A stretch of 64,000 bases of DNA from an uncultured Clostridia bacterium (GTDB lineage Bacteria > Bacillota > Clostridia > Christensenellales > UBA1242): contig CAMRSX010000001.1 of assembly GCA_947053595.1 (NCBI GenBank), positions 86,356 to 150,355 on the forward strand, written 5' to 3'. The stretch's first letter is position 1; each line of letters opens with the position of its first letter. A program made the translations under genes and the position numbers. The notes beneath the pieces are model-generated. The model had not been told where the DNA came from. It saw nothing but the letters and a program-made list of their open reading frames with translations, and did no database searches. This document shows, one piece after another, positions 4,366 through 61,580 of this stretch.

Positions 4366-5379
4366 ATGAACGAAAATTTTGAAAACATTGCAATTTCATC
4401 GCGAATTAGGCTGGCGAGAAATGTTTCTGGCTTCAATTTTTTCACGAAACTGACAAATGAAGATGACGCAAAACACATTGTGTCATCTCTTTCTTATGCT
4501 CTTTTGAAGTTTGGCGATTTTGACATCATCAAGCTTAAAAGTTTGTCACTTAACGAGTGCAATGCGCTTTTGGAGAGGCACATCATCAGCAAAGAGCTGA
4601 TTGAAAACAAAGACATCTCTGCTGTTGCGCTTTCGCCAGACGAACATCTCATCATTATGATGAATGAAGAAGACCACATAAGGGAACAATGTATGTGCAA
4701 GGGCTTCAACTTGTTTAGGCCATATCGCGAAATTAAGATGTTGGACGATTTGCTGCTTTCTCACTTGGATGTGGCATACAACGATTGTTTTGGCTTTCTC
4801 ACTTCCAGCCCTTCCAATTTGGGCACGGGAATGAGGGCGTCGGTGATGCTGTTTTTGCCAGCACTGGAGCGAAATGGCGACATTGAAATCATCAAGAAAG
4901 AAGCCAAATTGCTGAAGGCAACCGTGCGTGGGCTTTATGGCGAGGGCACGGCAACCTATGGCAGTTTTTATCAAATTTCCAATCAAAACACCCTTGGTAT
5001 GAGCGAAGAGGAAATCATTGACAGCGTGTCCGAATATGTATATCAAATTTGTCAGATGGAGCTTTCGGCAAGGGAGGACATCCTTTCCAGCAATCATGAT
5101 GAATTGGTGGATGAGGTTTGCAGAGCCTTTGGCACGCTTAAGGAGTGCACCCTTTTGAAAGAAAAGGAGATGATTGAGCTTTTGTCAGTTGTCAGATTTG
5201 GGGCTGCGCTTGGATTTTTGAAGATTTTGGATGAAAGAGAGTTTGACAGGCTTATGACCGAGCTTTGCAGTGCCAATCTGCACGAAATTGAAAATTTTTC
5301 TGTGGAAAAGAAGGAAGAACTTGTGCGAAGTGAGTATATAAATAAAAAAATAAGAGTTCTTGTCAAACGCGCCTTTTAG
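4366..5379 (+). CDS. mcsB: Protein arginine kinase McsB
   Basis: Motifs ISSRIRLARN, NEEDHIR and SPSNLGTGMRASVMLFLPAL. ATG 4366 lies 5 nt after AAGGA; the track start 4348 is TTG. Confidence 0.9.
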   Translation: MNENFENIAISSRIRLARNVSGFNFFTKLTNEDDAKHIVSSLSYALLKFGDFDIIKLKSLSLNECNALLERHIISKELIENKDISAVALSPDEHLIIMMNEEDHIREQCMCKGFNLFRPYREIKMLDDLLLSHLDVAYNDCFGFLTSSPSNLGTGMRASVMLFLPALERNGDIEIIKKEAKLLKATVRGLYGEGTATYGSFYQISNQNTLGMSEEEIIDSVSEYVYQICQMELSAREDILSSNHDELVDEVCRAFGTLKECTLLKEKEMIELLSVVRFGAALGFLKILDEREFDRLMTELCSANLHEIENFSVEKKEELVRSEYINKKIRVLVKRAF

Positions 5380-25251: not shown

Positions 25252-25300
25252 GACAAAAAAGGATGTGGCACTATAGCAAAACACACGAGGCGCAGCCATA

Positions 25301-25329
25301 AAAAAACACCAATGTTTTGGTGTTTTTTT
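25301..25329. terminator. Bidirectional hairpin terminator (AAAAAACACCAA-tgtt-TTGGTGTTTTTTT)
   Basis: Read directly between convergent genes. Confidence 0.75.
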
Positions 25330-42676: not shown

Positions 42677-43891
42677 ATGGAAGAAAAAAGAAGAAACAAC
42701 AGAATTCTTTGGGCGGTTTTGTTCGCTTTTATCACAGTGATGCTGTGTTATATGTTTGTTGTTTTATATTTCTTTTACATCTCTCCATTCAACATCTCTG
42801 CCAAGATTGGCTTTTGGCCGTTTTTGTCTGATAAGGCAATTGCCCAAACATATCTTGATGCCACAGTGCAAATTGATTTCACAGCGCACAGCGAAGAAGG
42901 CTTTGAGGATGTGAATGTCAGCGTTGTGGGGGTGAACATAAGAAAAGACGGTTATGTTGTTGCGCCTTACAGCGAACTGAAAGATTGCGATGAAAACACC
43001 AAGTTTAAAATCAACACCAATTCTGGTGCCGTATATGGCGGCAAGCTTTTATACAGCGATGTAAACTATAATGTTTCGCTTTTGAAGTGTGAAAACATTG
43101 ACAGCACAGAACAAATTAAATTGCCTTATGTTCAGGTGGCATCAAAAAATCAGCACATAAGTGAAAATGTGATTGCGGTTTCTTCTCCGCTTTTTGCAAA
43201 AAATTATTGGAAAGGCAAAGTGTCCGACCCAAGCAAGTTTTGCATGATAAGCCCAGAGAAGGTGGGCGGCTTTGATGTTGTTGATTTTGTGCTTGAAAAT
43301 TGTTTCAGCGTTCAGCTGGCAGATGATTTTTCTGGCGGAGCAATTTTGGATAAGTCTGGCATTTTGCTGGGGCTGTCTTACAAAGAAAAACTGGAAGATG
43401 AAACATATTGCGCCATTCCGGTTGACGGCATCAGGCTGTTTTTGGACGATGTTGTGAAATGCTATGAAAACGCACAAACTTATGACAACAATCTGGTGAA
43501 AAGCATTGTTGGCTTTGATGCAGCCGAGCTTTATTGCTTTATGGAAAGCGGCTCGATGTCTGACGGGGATGACAACTTTTTCTATTTCAATGGAGGGTGG
43601 CAGCCATACACCGATGCCATTGTTGCATATCGACAAACTTGGAATTTCAACACTGGCAACTTGCACGACTATTTTCTTTTTGAAGATTTTGTTTTTGGAG
43701 ATGTTGTGATTGCAAGAGAGAATGTGATTGGGCGCATTGTCAATTTGAAGACAAAGAAAAGCTTTGTCATCAACACCAAGCTTGACTTGTTTGAGGCTCT
43801 TTATGCTGCAAATGACGGCGAGCATCTTGAAATTTTTTATCAGCCTGCTGGAAGTGGAGACAACTGGCAAAGCGCTGTTGTGGCAGTTTAG
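42677..43891 (+). CDS. Membrane-anchored S1C (HtrA/trypsin)-like protein lacking the expected His and Asp
   Basis: N-terminal TM segment. GYVVAPYSEL sits where GYIxTNxHVV occurs, NVSLLK where DLAVLK occurs, and DDFSGGAILDKSGILLGLS where NPGNSGGPLxNxxGxVIGIN occurs. Confidence 0.5.
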   Translation: MEEKRRNNRILWAVLFAFITVMLCYMFVVLYFFYISPFNISAKIGFWPFLSDKAIAQTYLDATVQIDFTAHSEEGFEDVNVSVVGVNIRKDGYVVAPYSELKDCDENTKFKINTNSGAVYGGKLLYSDVNYNVSLLKCENIDSTEQIKLPYVQVASKNQHISENVIAVSSPLFAKNYWKGKVSDPSKFCMISPEKVGGFDVVDFVLENCFSVQLADDFSGGAILDKSGILLGLSYKEKLEDETYCAIPVDGIRLFLDDVVKCYENAQTYDNNLVKSIVGFDAAELYCFMESGSMSDGDDNFFYFNGGWQPYTDAIVAYRQTWNFNTGNLHDYFLFEDFVFGDVVIARENVIGRIVNLKTKKSFVINTKLDLFEALYAANDGEHLEIFYQPAGSGDNWQSAVVAV

Positions 43892-43900
43892 GAGGAAAAT

Positions 43901-44902
43901 GTGAGAAAAATTAAGTTTGCCATTGAAATGGGCGGTGGGAACACTTGCATTTATGTGAAAGGCGAAGGCTTGGCTTTGAAAGAGCCAACACTGATTGCTG
44001 CCGAGCCAACAGAGGATGGCTACAAAGTGATTGCCATGGGCATTGATGCCAAAAAACTTGTTGGCAAAACCAAAGAAAATGTGGAAATCTTCACACCAAT
44101 TCCTTATGGCGAAAACTCAAATTTTGAATATTCTGTCATTTTGCTTAAGCACTTTTTAAGCAAGGTTGGCTTCCGTCCGCACGAGGACAACGCAATTTTT
44201 ATTGTACCTTGCGGGCTGAGTGTGCACGAAAAAGAAAACCTTTTGAATGTCTGCGAAGGGGCAAACATAGTTCATGTGGATTTCATTCCTTCTGTGCTTT
44301 GCTCTTGCGTGGGTGAGGGAAGAAACATTGACAGCTCTAAAGTGAACATGGTTGTGGACATTGGCGGCACAGCAACCGAAATTGCTGTGATTAATATGTC
44401 TGGCATAATTAAGGGGGCAACACTGGGAATTGGCGGGAAAAGAATTGACGCTGCAATTGTCAACTTTTTGGCATACACCCAAGGCTTTGTGATTGGGCTT
44501 CCAACGGCTGAAACGTTGAAAAACGAAGTTGGAAGTTTATATCCAAACGACACCCTAAACATGGAAATTACTGGCGTGGACGCCACCAGCAAAACGCCGC
44601 GCAGCATTGTGATGCTTTCGTCCGACCTCAGAAAAGCAATCGAGCCATTTTACAGCGAAATTGTGCGCGCCATTGACACCACAATAAACACGCTTCCGCC
44701 GGAAATTGTGGCAGACATCATCAACAACAAAATTTTGATTGTTGGAGGCTGCTCTAAGCTGCAGGGGCTTTCTGATTATTTCAAGAAAAACCTGTCATAT
44801 CCAGTGGAGTTTTCGGAAGATGTGGAAAATGTCACCATTCTTGGTGCGGGCAAATTGCTGTGTGACGCTCAGCTTTTGGAAGGCATAATTGACAACCTAT
44901 AA
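43901..44902 (+). CDS. Divergent MreB/Mbl-family actin-like protein
   Basis: 333 aa. Matches are AIEMGGGNTCIYVKG (phosphate-1), VVDIGGTATEIAVI (phosphate-2) and IVGGCSKLQGLSDYF. GTG start lies 9 nt after the upstream gene. Confidence 0.7.
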   Translation: MRKIKFAIEMGGGNTCIYVKGEGLALKEPTLIAAEPTEDGYKVIAMGIDAKKLVGKTKENVEIFTPIPYGENSNFEYSVILLKHFLSKVGFRPHEDNAIFIVPCGLSVHEKENLLNVCEGANIVHVDFIPSVLCSCVGEGRNIDSSKVNMVVDIGGTATEIAVINMSGIIKGATLGIGGKRIDAAIVNFLAYTQGFVIGLPTAETLKNEVGSLYPNDTLNMEITGVDATSKTPRSIVMLSSDLRKAIEPFYSEIVRAIDTTINTLPPEIVADIINNKILIVGGCSKLQGLSDYFKKNLSYPVEFSEDVENVTILGAGKLLCDAQLLEGIIDNL

Positions 44903-44928
44903 AAAAACACCTGACAAGGTGTTTTTTT
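44899..44928. terminator. Bidirectional hairpin terminator, left copy of a perfect 30-bp direct repeat
   Basis: ATAAAAAAACACCTGACAAGGTGTTTTTTT. It includes the TAA stop of the MreB-like gene. Confidence 0.8.
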
Positions 44929-44942
44929 ATAGGGTTTTTAAA

Positions 44943-45314
44943 TTAAACTCTAATCACACATTCACACAGCTCTATCGCCCTTTTGACTCTTTCAGTATAC
45001 GATAATTTCATGCAAAACACATCAGGTGCCAAAAATACAAGCGAAATTTCTTTATGTGCCAGTAAAAAGTTTGCATATTCCCATTCTGTAATGGATGGGG
45101 CTTTTATTATTTTAATGGTAAAAAAGTATTTATTTTTTAAGTCTTTTAATTCCCATAAACAATCGTGCCAAGTGTTTGAAAGCTTTTGAGGAAATAAAAT
45201 AAAGCACTTTATCTGTCTACTCTTTAATAATTTTATTATTTCAAGTCTAAATTCAGAAAGCATTATGTCTTTATTATGAGCCTCTTTACAAATTAACAAA
45301 CAATTTTTAAACAT
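44943..45314 (-). CDS. Orphan 123-aa protein of unknown function
   Basis: ATG lies 6 nt after GGAGG. MFKNCLLICKEAHNKDIML... has no TM segment or signal peptide and is Cys-rich at both ends. I recognised no family. Confidence 0.6.
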   Translation of the reverse strand: MFKNCLLICKEAHNKDIMLSEFRLEIIKLLKSRQIKCFILFPQKLSNTWHDCLWELKDLKNKYFFTIKIIKAPSITEWEYANFLLAHKEISLVFLAPDVFCMKLSYTERVKRAIELCECVIRV

Positions 45315-45414
45315 CTTTAACCTCCAGTTTAATAATTATATTTATTATAACAGAACACTATAAATATGTCAATACATCTGCGCATATATAGCGTATTACG
45401 CCAATGATTTTTTA

Positions 45415-45443
45415 TTGTTAATATTTATGCGTAGAAATATAGT
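45415..45443 (+). promoter_or_regulatory. Promoter candidate (TTGTTA, 17 nt spacer, TATAGT) for the cassette XRE gene
   Basis: Read directly. It is flanked by related motifs GCGCATATATAGCG and GCGTAGAAATATAGTCG, which are possible operators. Confidence 0.4.
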
Positions 45444-45475
45444 CGCAATTATGTGGCATAATAAGGAGGATGCAA

Positions 45476-45718
45476 ATGGAAATTAGTGCAGCAGTTTTGA
45501 AAAGGGTGGAACAACTTTTGAAGGAAAAGAAAATGACATTTTATGCCTTGGAAAACAAATCATCAATTCAGCACGGCACCATGTCTGCTTTTCGTTATGG
45601 AAAAACAAAAAACATAACCTTGCGAACAATAATGCAACTTTGCATAGGCTTGGATATGTCTTTAACAGAATTTTTGGAAGACCCAATTTTCAAATTTGAG
45701 AATTTCAATTTGGAATAA
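45476..45718 (+). CDS. XRE-family helix-turn-helix transcriptional regulator (80 aa)
   Basis: MTFYALENKSSIQHGTMSAFRYGKTKNITLRTIMQLCIGLDMSLTEFL. The second ATG lies 6 nt after AAGGAGG. Confidence 0.8.
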   Translation: MEISAAVLKRVEQLLKEKKMTFYALENKSSIQHGTMSAFRYGKTKNITLRTIMQLCIGLDMSLTEFLEDPIFKFENFNLE

Positions 45719-45744
45719 AAAAACACCTGACAAGGTGTTTTTTT
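45715..45744. terminator. Bidirectional hairpin terminator, right copy of the 30-bp direct repeat
   Basis: Identical 30/30 to 44899-44928. It includes the TAA stop of the XRE gene. Confidence 0.8.
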
Positions 45745-45746
45745 TG

Positions 45747-46049
45747 TTAGGACAGGATGAATTTCATCAGGGCTTCTTTCTTTTCTTGAGGCAACACCTT
45801 GATGAGATTGTATAACTCTTTGTCTTTTTGATATGTTTGAAAATTGTCGGCAAAAAATTCTTCGGCTGTCACTGCAAGTGCGTCGATGATTGTCAGCAGC
45901 ACGCTGGATGGAAGATTGAAATTATAGCATTCCAATTTGCCAATATAGTTGTTGCTTTTGCCAATCATTTGGCTTAATTCTTGAGCAGTCATGCCTTTCT
46001 TGTTTCTGAAATAGCTTATTCTTTGTGCGATATCCTTAACTTCCACCAT
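45747..46049 (-). CDS. XRE-family helix-turn-helix transcriptional regulator (100 aa)
   Basis: MVEVKDIAQRISYFRNKKGMTAQELSQMIGKSNNYIGKLE follows AGGAGAAAT. The track start 46127 is an upstream extension. Confidence 0.8.
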   Translation of the reverse strand: MVEVKDIAQRISYFRNKKGMTAQELSQMIGKSNNYIGKLECYNFNLPSSVLLTIIDALAVTAEEFFADNFQTYQKDKELYNLIKVLPQEKKEALMKFILS

Positions 46050-46279
46050 ATTTCTCCTATTCTTATATTTTAATCCACAGATGCTGCTTTCCGTGGGAAT
46101 GACATGGTATAAATATTGTCCATGCACGCCTGTTTTTCTTATGCAAAGCTGAAGAGGAAGAATGTTTGCTGTTTGGAATTGGTTAATTGAGTTTTTTCGA
46201 CAAAAATTGTGATTTTGTGGTGGCTTGACACTTGGCGATGACGCTGTTTTGGTTGTAAAATGTTGTTAGGAGCATGTTT

Positions 46280-47071
46280 ATGGCACGAAAAATTGTTGTC
46301 ACAAGTGGAAAAGGCGGGGTTGGCAAAACCACCGTTTGTGCAAACCTTGGAGTTTATCTTTCAAGGCTGGGCTTTAGGGTTGTGTTGATGGATGTGGACA
46401 TTGGGCTTAATAATCTGGATGTGATTATGGGTTTGGAGAGGCAGGTTATTTTTGACATAACCGATGTTGTTTCTGGCAAGTGCAGGGTGAGGCAGGCGCT
46501 GCTTCAAGACCCAAATTATCCTTCGCTTTATCTTTTGCCGTCTTCCCACACTTACAAATCCAGCAAAATCACAGGGGAACACATCAAAAACATCATTGAC
46601 ATCATCGACCACTCGTTTGATTATATCTTGATTGACTGCCCTGCTGGGGTTGAAGCGGGCTTTCATCGTGCGGTTTACCCTGCCAGTGAGGCGTTGGTTG
46701 TGGTGACGCCACATCTTTCGTCCATTCGTGATGCAGACAAGGTGGTGGGGCTTTTGACGGAGTATAACATTGAAAGCAAGGGATTGGTGATTAATCGCAT
46801 GCGAGGGGATTTGCTTATGTCTGGCGAGATGATGAACATTGAAAGCATTGTCAAGGCCATGGGGGTGCCTCTTTTGGGCGTGATTCCAGAAGATGACGAA
46901 GTTGGAAAGATGTCCGGTGACGGAAGAATTATGAAAAATTGCGAAAGTGCAAGAGCCTTCACGTTATTGTCTGAGAACATACATAACGGAAGCAAAAAGA
47001 TTTTTGATTGCACTTACAAATATCGCGGTTTGGTGGGATATATGAAGAGGAACATCAAGAAAATGGTTTGA
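46280..47071 (+). CDS. minD: Septum site-determining ATPase MinD
   Basis: IVVTSGKGGVGKTT and a C-terminal amphipathic helix (GLVGYMKRNIKKMV). ATG 46280 lies 7 nt after AGGAG. Confidence 0.9.
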   Translation: MARKIVVTSGKGGVGKTTVCANLGVYLSRLGFRVVLMDVDIGLNNLDVIMGLERQVIFDITDVVSGKCRVRQALLQDPNYPSLYLLPSSHTYKSSKITGEHIKNIIDIIDHSFDYILIDCPAGVEAGFHRAVYPASEALVVVTPHLSSIRDADKVVGLLTEYNIESKGLVINRMRGDLLMSGEMMNIESIVKAMGVPLLGVIPEDDEVGKMSGDGRIMKNCESARAFTLLSENIHNGSKKIFDCTYKYRGLVGYMKRNIKKMV

Positions 47072-61548: not shown

Positions 61549-61580
61549 AAAAAAACACATCCAAAAAGGTGTGTTTTTTT
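61549..61580 (+). terminator. Hairpin terminator (AAAAACACATCC-a5-GGTGTGTTTTTTT)
   Basis: Read directly. The stem has one mismatch. Confidence 0.6.

Follow-up and report, generated by a model that had tools for sequence, protein, structure and literature searches.

A two-gene XRE regulator module between two identical copies of a predicted palindromic terminator in the mreB-minD interval of an uncultured Clostridia bacterium

The duplicated terminator and the genes around it

The stretch analysed here, which we call the window throughout, is 64 kb of DNA from an uncultured Clostridia bacterium (assembly GCA_947053595.1, contig CAMRSX010000001.1, positions 86,356 to 150,355). Between its genes for an MreB-like protein and for MinD lies a small AT-rich islet with two divergent genes, orf123 and XRE80, the second of which encodes a helix-turn-helix (HTH) regulator of the Cro/C1 type. 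The pair is bracketed by two identical copies, T1 and T2, of the 30-mer ATAAAAAAACACCTGACAAGGTGTTTTTTT, and another regulator gene, XRE100, follows before minD (Table 1). A first-pass annotation, made from the sequence alone, had taken the arrangement for the likely footprint of an insertion or recombination event, with a mechanism of mobilisation, if there was one, that it could not name. The sequence facts on which that proposal was built have stood, but the mobile interpretation itself is weakened by the comparative data presented below: the 816-bp unit is best read, from the sequences now at hand, as a resident two-gene module in a variable mreB-minD gap, not as an autonomous or new mobile element.

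Table 1. Features of the mreB-minD interval (coordinates of the window)
Feature	Coordinates	Strand	Remarks
MreB-like gene, 333 amino acids (aa)	43901..44902	+	Pfam MreB_Mbl, E=2e-69
T1, left copy of the 30-mer	44899..44928	none	predicted bidirectional terminator serving the MreB-like gene (+) and orf123 (-)
orf123	44943..45314	-	positional counterpart of the YpsA/SLOG-family partner genes in L034 and L042
sigma-70 consensus promoter for orf123	45344..45372	-	TTGACA-17-TATAAT, 12/12; scan flags a TG before the -10
two operator-like sites, TGCGCATAT and TTATGCGTA	45379..45433	none	46 bp apart, in the divergent promoter region
XRE80, Cro/C1-type HTH, 80 aa (82 aa from start 45470)	45476..45718	+	Pfam HTH_26
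T2, right copy of the 30-mer	45715..45744	none	predicted bidirectional terminator between convergent XRE80 (+) and XRE100 (-)
XRE100, HTH_3 regulator	45747..46049	-	Pfam HTH_3
minD	46280..47071	+	Pfam CbiA/ParA; 81-93% identity in relatives; right neighbour of the variable gap

The two copies of the 30-mer agree at 30/30 positions with a spacing of 816 bp, and the positions and embedded stop codons given in the first-pass annotation were all verified. No other perfect direct repeat in the window reaches 22 nt, and no third match to the 30-mer exists there at up to three mismatches (0 expected from shuffled sequences). The 30-mer is also a palindrome with one TAA in each arm, one per strand; the TAA at 44900-44902 inside T1 closes the MreB-like reading frame and that at 45716-45718 inside T2 closes XRE80. 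T1 is embedded in a longer perfect palindrome (44896-44933) with arms of 17 bp and folds at -23.9 and -21.9 kcal/mol on the two strands, and T2, with arms of 12 bp, folds at -13.7 and -12.3 kcal/mol; the folding z-scores range from -3.1 to -7.4 and no shuffle folds as well. Each copy thus forms a hairpin on both strands, as had been claimed, and each has the stem-loop between an A-tract and a T-tract that characterizes an intrinsic bidirectional terminator, with convergent gene ends 0-14 nt from the hairpins. The earlier statement that the unit has no inverted ends is not strictly true, since palindromic copies also act as inverted repeats: T1 and T2 match at 26/30 positions in that sense, and their direct orientation is shown solely by the 4-nt loop GACA.

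Counting the 30-mer elsewhere, a check which the first-pass annotation had proposed, revealed that it is not a common stand-alone terminator, its 24-nt core being absent from the GTDB representative genomes, the JGI metagenomes and IMG/VR. Rfam yielded no significant family, and its weak RNAI and STnc370 matches were below the gathering scores and driven by the hairpin. Two other terminator-like hairpins lie in the window, one at 25300-25329 with 11-nt arms identical to those of the 30-mer (AAAAAAACACC / GGTGTTTTTTT) and a different centre, and one at 61549-61578 that is similar to it in style. Because the relatives described below carry a species-specific terminator after mreB, T1 is, by position, evidently the native bidirectional intrinsic terminator of the MreB-like gene. 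The terminators at the orthologous position in two of these relatives, L011 (GACCTGTCAAGGTC) and L027, resemble that of the window (CACCTGACAAGGTG); in blastn the T2 copy, identical to T1, matches them at 83-84% over 29-32 nt.

The AT-rich character of the interior was likewise borne out. Its 786 bp have a G+C fraction of 0.30 against 0.444 for mreB and 0.451 for minD, falling to a minimum of 0.24 at 45100-45400 (200-bp windows) between flanks of 0.42-0.47, and the earlier count of 13 G+C for 45181-45240 is exact. XRE80 belongs to PF13443 (HTH_26), scoring 41.9 bits (E=1.2e-10) against a family cutoff of 22; it shows no similarity to XRE100, and the two are not paralogues. The first of the operator-like sites in the divergent promoter region abuts the -35 element of the orf123 promoter, and we infer that the sites at 45379-45433 are the XRE80 binding sites. 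With these assignments, XRE80 would bind the two TGCGCATA-type sites and repress the strong orf123 promoter and likely its own. T1 would terminate the mreB and orf123 transcripts, T2 those of XRE80 and XRE100, and the two terminators together would insulate the islet from the neighbouring cell-shape and division genes.

The module and its site in related species

For comparison we used 39 species representatives whose MreB-like genes are 68-85% identical to that of the window; they are labelled Clostridia, Christensenella, Catabacter or Candidatus Caccovivens. The gene order Ppx, trypsin-like protease, MreB-like, minD, minE-like is found in 32 of the 39, and the mreB-minD synteny is lost in six species with downstream sequence at hand. 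The gap between mreB and minD measures 109-226 bp in approximately 26 of the 39, as against 1378 bp in the window, where the interval is thus enlarged. In every one of the relatives a species-specific hairpin terminator follows the mreB stop. What comes after it varies: L004 (7012-7554) and L010 have a Ser_hydrolase gene in the gap, L016 (7075-7815) has an opposite-strand gene for a 246-aa protein with no Pfam match, and in L005, L017, L018 and L031 the gap consists of 300-360 bp of AT-rich non-coding DNA. None of the relatives has a duplicated terminator or flanking repeats around its gap insertion. XRE100 is absent from the gap in every relative examined (L002-L040), and none of these shows the empty site that the first-pass annotation had suggested looking for, mreB-terminator-XRE100; in the window XRE100, too, is an extra gene.

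The database contains just two close relatives of XRE80, one at 79% identity on the 1528-bp contig L042 and one at 66% in L034, and in both cases the gene lies in the same gap. There, mreB converges on the XRE gene across a terminator, and beyond a divergent promoter region a gene for 135-153 aa reads toward minD. Relative to these two, the module of the window is inverted; L034 and L042 have a single terminator, no flanking repeat and no XRE100. In L042, where mreB and the XRE gene share one terminator, the stop codons of both genes fall within its A- and T-tracts, as happens in the copies of the window. All three species have homologous divergent promoter regions, in which the -35 and -10 elements of the partner gene keep their positions; 46 bp separate the TGCGCATAT and TATGCGTA sites in the window and likewise in L042, and L034 has related motifs. 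In all three species the module has a G+C content 10-14 points below that of its flanks, and the arrangement of the L034 species is identical in three independent assemblies. The cassette is therefore not an isolated arrival, given that a homologous XRE gene and partner with the same promoter architecture occupy the same gap in two other species.

The degree of divergence is informative as well. The 79% and 66% identities of XRE80 to its L042 and L034 counterparts compare with 83% for the MreB C-terminus (L042) and 74% for full-length MreB (L034), and the module DNA (XRE gene and promoter region) has about 71% nucleotide identity between species versus about 80% for the flanking core genes. 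Since the divergence of the XRE gene parallels that of the core genes, these identities indicate that the module is an old resident rather than a recent import. The observation that, according to the first-pass annotation, would speak for an ancient and non-mobile arrangement, namely relatives with the same genes and diverged flanks, was thus made in part. In a rough neighbour-joining tree built from Ppx, MreB and MinD, the window falls, with weak placement, beside L042, and L034 lies at the base of a large clade whose remaining species are without the module, for which reason the L034/L042 orientation would be ancestral and that of the window derived.

The second gene of the module is more difficult to assign. 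Searches with orf123 gave no match in Pfam (even at E<=1), PHROGs, PADLOC or NCBIfam, and in both a word-indexed search and a full HMMER search (5.8 billion clusters; 1.84 billion representatives) it matched itself alone. Between L034 and L042 the partner genes show homology (E=6e-8), and a PDB sequence search with the L034 partner found no match. Their family became apparent from distant relatives of XRE80, 16 of which (31-48% identity) were found by a degenerate-pattern scan of metagenome contigs. A homologue of the L034 partner adjoins the XRE gene in six of the nine closest of these (34-44% identity) and is divergently oriented in all five of the distant loci with open reading frames listed; three distant partners, members of the profile used below, match Pfam YpsA (PF06908) at 2.8e-22, 3.4e-13 and 3.7e-7. 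By BLASTP, orf123 reaches marginal values of E=0.013 to the L042 partner and 0.13 to that of L034. In hhalign against the seven-sequence partner profile it aligns colinearly over 100 columns at a marginal E=0.036, YTERVKRAIELCECVI against ITERNKQMVDCSHFIV, and the alignment takes in the region of the conserved ...TERN..MVD.S..V motif. From its alignments to the partner family, orf123 appears to be without the GHR-type N-terminal motif and without the C-terminal third. A single-sequence AlphaFold2 model (predicted local distance difference test score 63, predicted template-modelling score 0.56) has a Rossmann-like beta-alpha-beta-alpha arrangement, for which all Foldseek matches were generic folds of the Rossmann-like or HUP kind (best E=0.022). 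Considering this marginal sequence evidence together with the position of the gene behind the conserved promoter, the supposed orphan is probably a C-terminally truncated, degenerate member of the YpsA/SLOG family. The SLOG-family partner would be the effector in intact modules, and the version in the window looks decayed. In Bacillus subtilis, YpsA is an inhibitor of cell division when overproduced (PMC6459960), and with this in mind the position of the module between an mreB-like gene and minD is suggestive, no more.

The distant loci provide some further observations. In L050 (1130-2659) a YpsA-like gene on the minus strand is followed by an XRE80-like, an XRE100-like and a second XRE80-like gene, all three on the plus strand, a cluster that ties both regulators of the window to a SLOG gene in an unrelated genome. 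The XRE100-like gene (40% identity to XRE100, E=2e-19) directly follows an XRE80-like gene there, and for this reason XRE100 may be functionally part of the XRE80-SLOG system. Distant XRE-YpsA modules lie next to a serine recombinase gene (Resolvase, E=4e-27) in L043 (2-505) and next to an IS200-type Y1 transposase gene (E=1.7e-38) in L046 (835-1296), which suggests that in other lineages mobile elements carry the pair. Downstream of the XRE80-like gene of L051, at 4419-4699, are six G+C-rich units of about 42 nt with a spacing of 47-49 bp.

Two observations concern the neighbouring genes. Nearly all of the relatives L002-L040 share a motif upstream of minD (TTGACAAAAAT.., or of the AAA(T/A)NAGACA type; approximately 46190-46215 in the window), which may be a promoter or a regulatory site for the min operon. 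The trypsin-like protease gene upstream of mreB (42677-43891) encodes a protein with 29-50% identity in relatives versus 64-85% for its neighbours Ppx and the MreB-like protein and, judging from these identities, is evolving unusually fast.

The origin of the duplicated terminator

As the window belongs to a metagenome-assembled genome, a separate small molecule or a strain variant might have been joined to the chromosome at the shared 30-mer, and one short contig, L001, does end 5 nt into the right repeat. We nevertheless consider such an assembly artefact very improbable. L001 and L041 are the two low-coverage same-species fragments that were retrieved; the former has approximately 2x coverage, which makes its ends uninformative, and the latter is an independent 869-bp SPAdes contig from another sample (ERZ14651023) that runs through XRE80, T2, XRE100 and minD with 97% identity over the aligned span. 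Because of this contig, the right junction is not an artefact of assembly. Moreover, 30 bp is shorter than the usual final k-mers of metagenome assemblers, so that the flanks on both sides should be supported by reads. The mismatched columns of L041 are mostly accounted for by a 22-bp deletion (L041:480-520; window 45973-45994), and it has one T fewer after T2. The deletion frameshifts XRE100 in this other strain of the species, and a regulator broken in this way suggests that the islet is under weak selection. Exact-protein look-ups with the MreB-like protein, orf123, XRE100 and a 99-aa variant of XRE100 on an 18.4-kb Logan contig gave no matches.

How, then, did the second terminator arise? 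The account that we favour, tentatively and at slightly less than an even chance, is that the resident XRE-SLOG module was rearranged in this lineage, probably by being flipped, and that the palindromic terminator was duplicated with it. Break and repair, or recombination, at the terminator hairpin would have left the module flipped or re-inserted and the palindrome in two copies; in the most economical version, an inversion would have had one of its breakpoints cut in staggered fashion across the hairpin and then filled in. Where an inversion breakpoint is staggered and filled in, the sequence there becomes duplicated (Ranz et al. 2007, PMC1885836), and an inversion of this kind accounts for the flipped module, for the second terminator and for the preservation of both the mreB-terminator and the XRE-terminator junctions. 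The 30/30 identity of the copies, at a position where the orthologous terminators differ among all species, implies that the duplication is recent and lineage-specific or, otherwise, that there has been concerted evolution. In addition, the 4-nt loop would have to have been flipped or converted afterwards. A comparable case is found in the tandem XRE cassettes of L047 (500-2444), in which a 68-nt repeat (500-567 and 1374-1441) is 99% identical and different HTH genes are bracketed; a 61-nt terminator-bearing repeat of the same region (1179-1239 and 2384-2444), 90% identical, has the hairpin loop AA in one copy and TT in the other.

Several points weigh against this local rearrangement of a resident module. 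A simple inversion predicts the loop TGTC in T2, and both copies carry GACA; the loop flip within the direct repeat of L047 shows that such changes occur, but the loop step stays ad hoc. The module is present in 3 of about 42 species, so that vertical descent needs several clean losses, and the longer empty gaps of the relatives contain no module remnants. Independent insertions at the same site are conceivable. The sister placement of L042 rests on 212 aa, and the homology of orf123 to the SLOG family is not statistically secure. Independent contig support covers the right junction only and not mreB-T1-orf123, a point that also speaks for an artefact, and the protease search, which points to a rare species, gave no conspecific genome, the next match being 50% identical.

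The loop also decides the fate of simpler schemes. Neither staggered-break inversion in its simple form nor Campbell integration through the arms was retained as the primary model, both predicting a flipped loop that is not seen. The capture of a blunt fragment was dropped as well, as it needs a chance rebuilding of the conserved XRE C-terminus and its stop, unless the ends were joined by terminator homology. Indeed, every mechanism model that we have considered needs one ad hoc step.

The principal rival, which we regard as unlikely, is that the unit is a non-autonomous mobile cassette: an 816-bp circle with one 30-mer, orf123 and XRE80 would recombine with the mreB terminator in the manner of Campbell, using a host recombinase in trans (Xer-like, HUH/Y1-like or other) or RecA acting on 30 bp or, alternatively, a fragment would be captured in a staggered cut of cruciform length and filled in, leaving a target duplication as long as the palindrome. 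Perfect direct repeats that include the asymmetric loop are what att-type recombination or target duplication would produce, and the repeat spans essentially the palindrome; in the circle, moreover, the 30-mer would be the shared convergent terminator of XRE80 and orf123 and would supply the XRE80 stop codon. The AT-rich interior, the patchy distribution, the two orientations at one site across species and the recombinase and transposase genes beside the distant modules of L043 and L046 all fit such a cassette. However, repeats are absent from the two other occupied sites, each of which has a single terminator, and a circle that carries a species-specific terminator presupposes an earlier duplication. 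A further copy of the 30-mer, or a second copy of the module, was found neither in the window nor in the public collections searched. The cassette itself has no transposase or integrase, as the first-pass annotation stated, and a search of the window for homologues of Y1 transposases and serine recombinases gave none. There were also no matches to phage or plasmid DNA and no viral relatives of XRE80. The parallel divergence of the XRE gene and its hosts and the lack of polymorphism among the three assemblies of the L034 species count against mobility too, and integration by arm pairing alone would, in the observed orientation, give opposite loops.

Two other explanations start from the hairpin itself. 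Instead of one terminator having been duplicated, two different ones may have been homogenised: the XRE80/XRE100 pair would have had its own terminator of the A7CACC...GGTGT7 type, made identical to that of mreB by short-patch gene conversion, and the module would have been inverted separately by recombination between the complementary hairpin arms, with the loops left in place. Arms of this type do recur in the genome, in the hairpin at 25300-25329 with its same 11-nt arms and in the similar one at 61549-61578, and, reasoning from the sequence, arm recombination would invert the module without disturbing either the loops or the embedded stops. It is nonetheless a rare event to convert a patch of 6-8 nt flanked by 11-12 nt of homology, the identity reaches the AT to the left of the A-tract, no intermediate has been seen, and the presence of a second terminator of the same type is left unexplained; for these reasons we think this quite unlikely. 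A more speculative and likewise improbable proposal is that palindromic terminators serve as attachment or target sites for cassettes that have no recombinase, with cleavage at the base of the hairpin and subsequent fill-in; the XRE-SLOG pair would then shuttle or flip at the mreB terminator. The hairpin would be exposed by cruciform extrusion or recognized by a host recombinase in trans, and the whole palindrome would be duplicated around the cassette. The duplication does cover almost exactly the palindrome, and its recurrence elsewhere would point to hairpin-directed cut-and-fill; we know of no description of such a process for bacterial gene insertion.

If the favoured account of a flipped resident module with a duplicated terminator is true, the locus is a neat but ordinary instance of small-scale evolution at an intergenic hot spot of gut Clostridia that are uncultured and have small genomes, in which a duplicated host terminator keeps both convergent gene pairs insulated. 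A by-product of the analysis is the recurrent divergent pairing of an HTH_26 repressor with a YpsA/SLOG gene on several Clostridia-like metagenome contigs.

Comparison with known systems

The two copies resemble bidirectional intrinsic terminators in having a stem-loop with an A-tract and a T-tract, stop codons 0-14 nt away and a fold on both strands. They differ from them, as far as the sequence goes, in that one 30-nt sequence is present in two copies with a spacing of 816 bp and has stop codons within its arms. With the inversion breakpoints of Ranz et al. (PMC1885836) the locus shares an inverted segment and a breakpoint sequence at both ends; that model, however, is documented in Drosophila and not in bacteria, and it predicts inverted copies, whereas here the 4-nt loop is direct. 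As for B. subtilis YpsA (PMC6459960), the partners of the XRE80-like regulators match Pfam YpsA and orf123 aligns colinearly with them, but orf123 itself falls below the family thresholds, and divergent pairing with an XRE repressor is not known for B. subtilis ypsA.

Among mobile systems, the closest likeness is to the dif (pdif) modules of Acinetobacter plasmids, which are moved by XerC/XerD (PMC6449649). These are also small modules without a recombinase, often encoding regulators or toxin-antitoxin pairs, and they are bounded by partly palindromic sites of about 28 bp. Modules of both kinds are found turned either way, and an 11-6-11 parse of the 30-mer is possible. Any hairpin of 12-4-12 permits that parse, however, and the 30-mer looks like an ordinary terminator, with no sequence evidence for a Xer site. 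A Xer dif-module would also be expected as one of several modules, or in different replicons or sites, with two bounding sites each time; here there is one chromosomal module with two sites, the 30-mer has two copies in the window and none elsewhere in the collections searched, and the homologous modules of L034 and L042 have no second site.

Integron attC cassettes and IS200/IS605-derived elements likewise have hairpin boundaries, which in their case act in single-stranded form, and carry cargo without a recombinase of its own. The attC sites are imperfect hairpins of 57-141 bp with extrahelical bases and lie next to intI, and the ends of IS200/IS605 elements are imperfect subterminal hairpins with specific cleavage tetranucleotides and no duplication. 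The 30-mer, in contrast, is a perfect stem of 12-17 bp. Its 30-38 bp palindromes form no cassette array (intI was not searched for exhaustively), and the GTTAGGA next to T2 departs from the attC R' core consensus GTTRRRY at the last base. Perfect hairpins that include host stop codons argue against membership in the IS200/IS605 type, and a search of the 64-kb window gave no Y1 transposase. Nor does the unit have the properties of a classical transposon or insertion sequence, since it consists only of orf123 and an HTH protein and its repeat, where a target duplication of 2-14 bp would be expected, is a 30-bp host terminator. The locus is best classed as a lineage-specific rearrangement of a recurrent XRE-YpsA/SLOG pair, accompanied by duplication of a terminator, at an intergenic position that varies among species.

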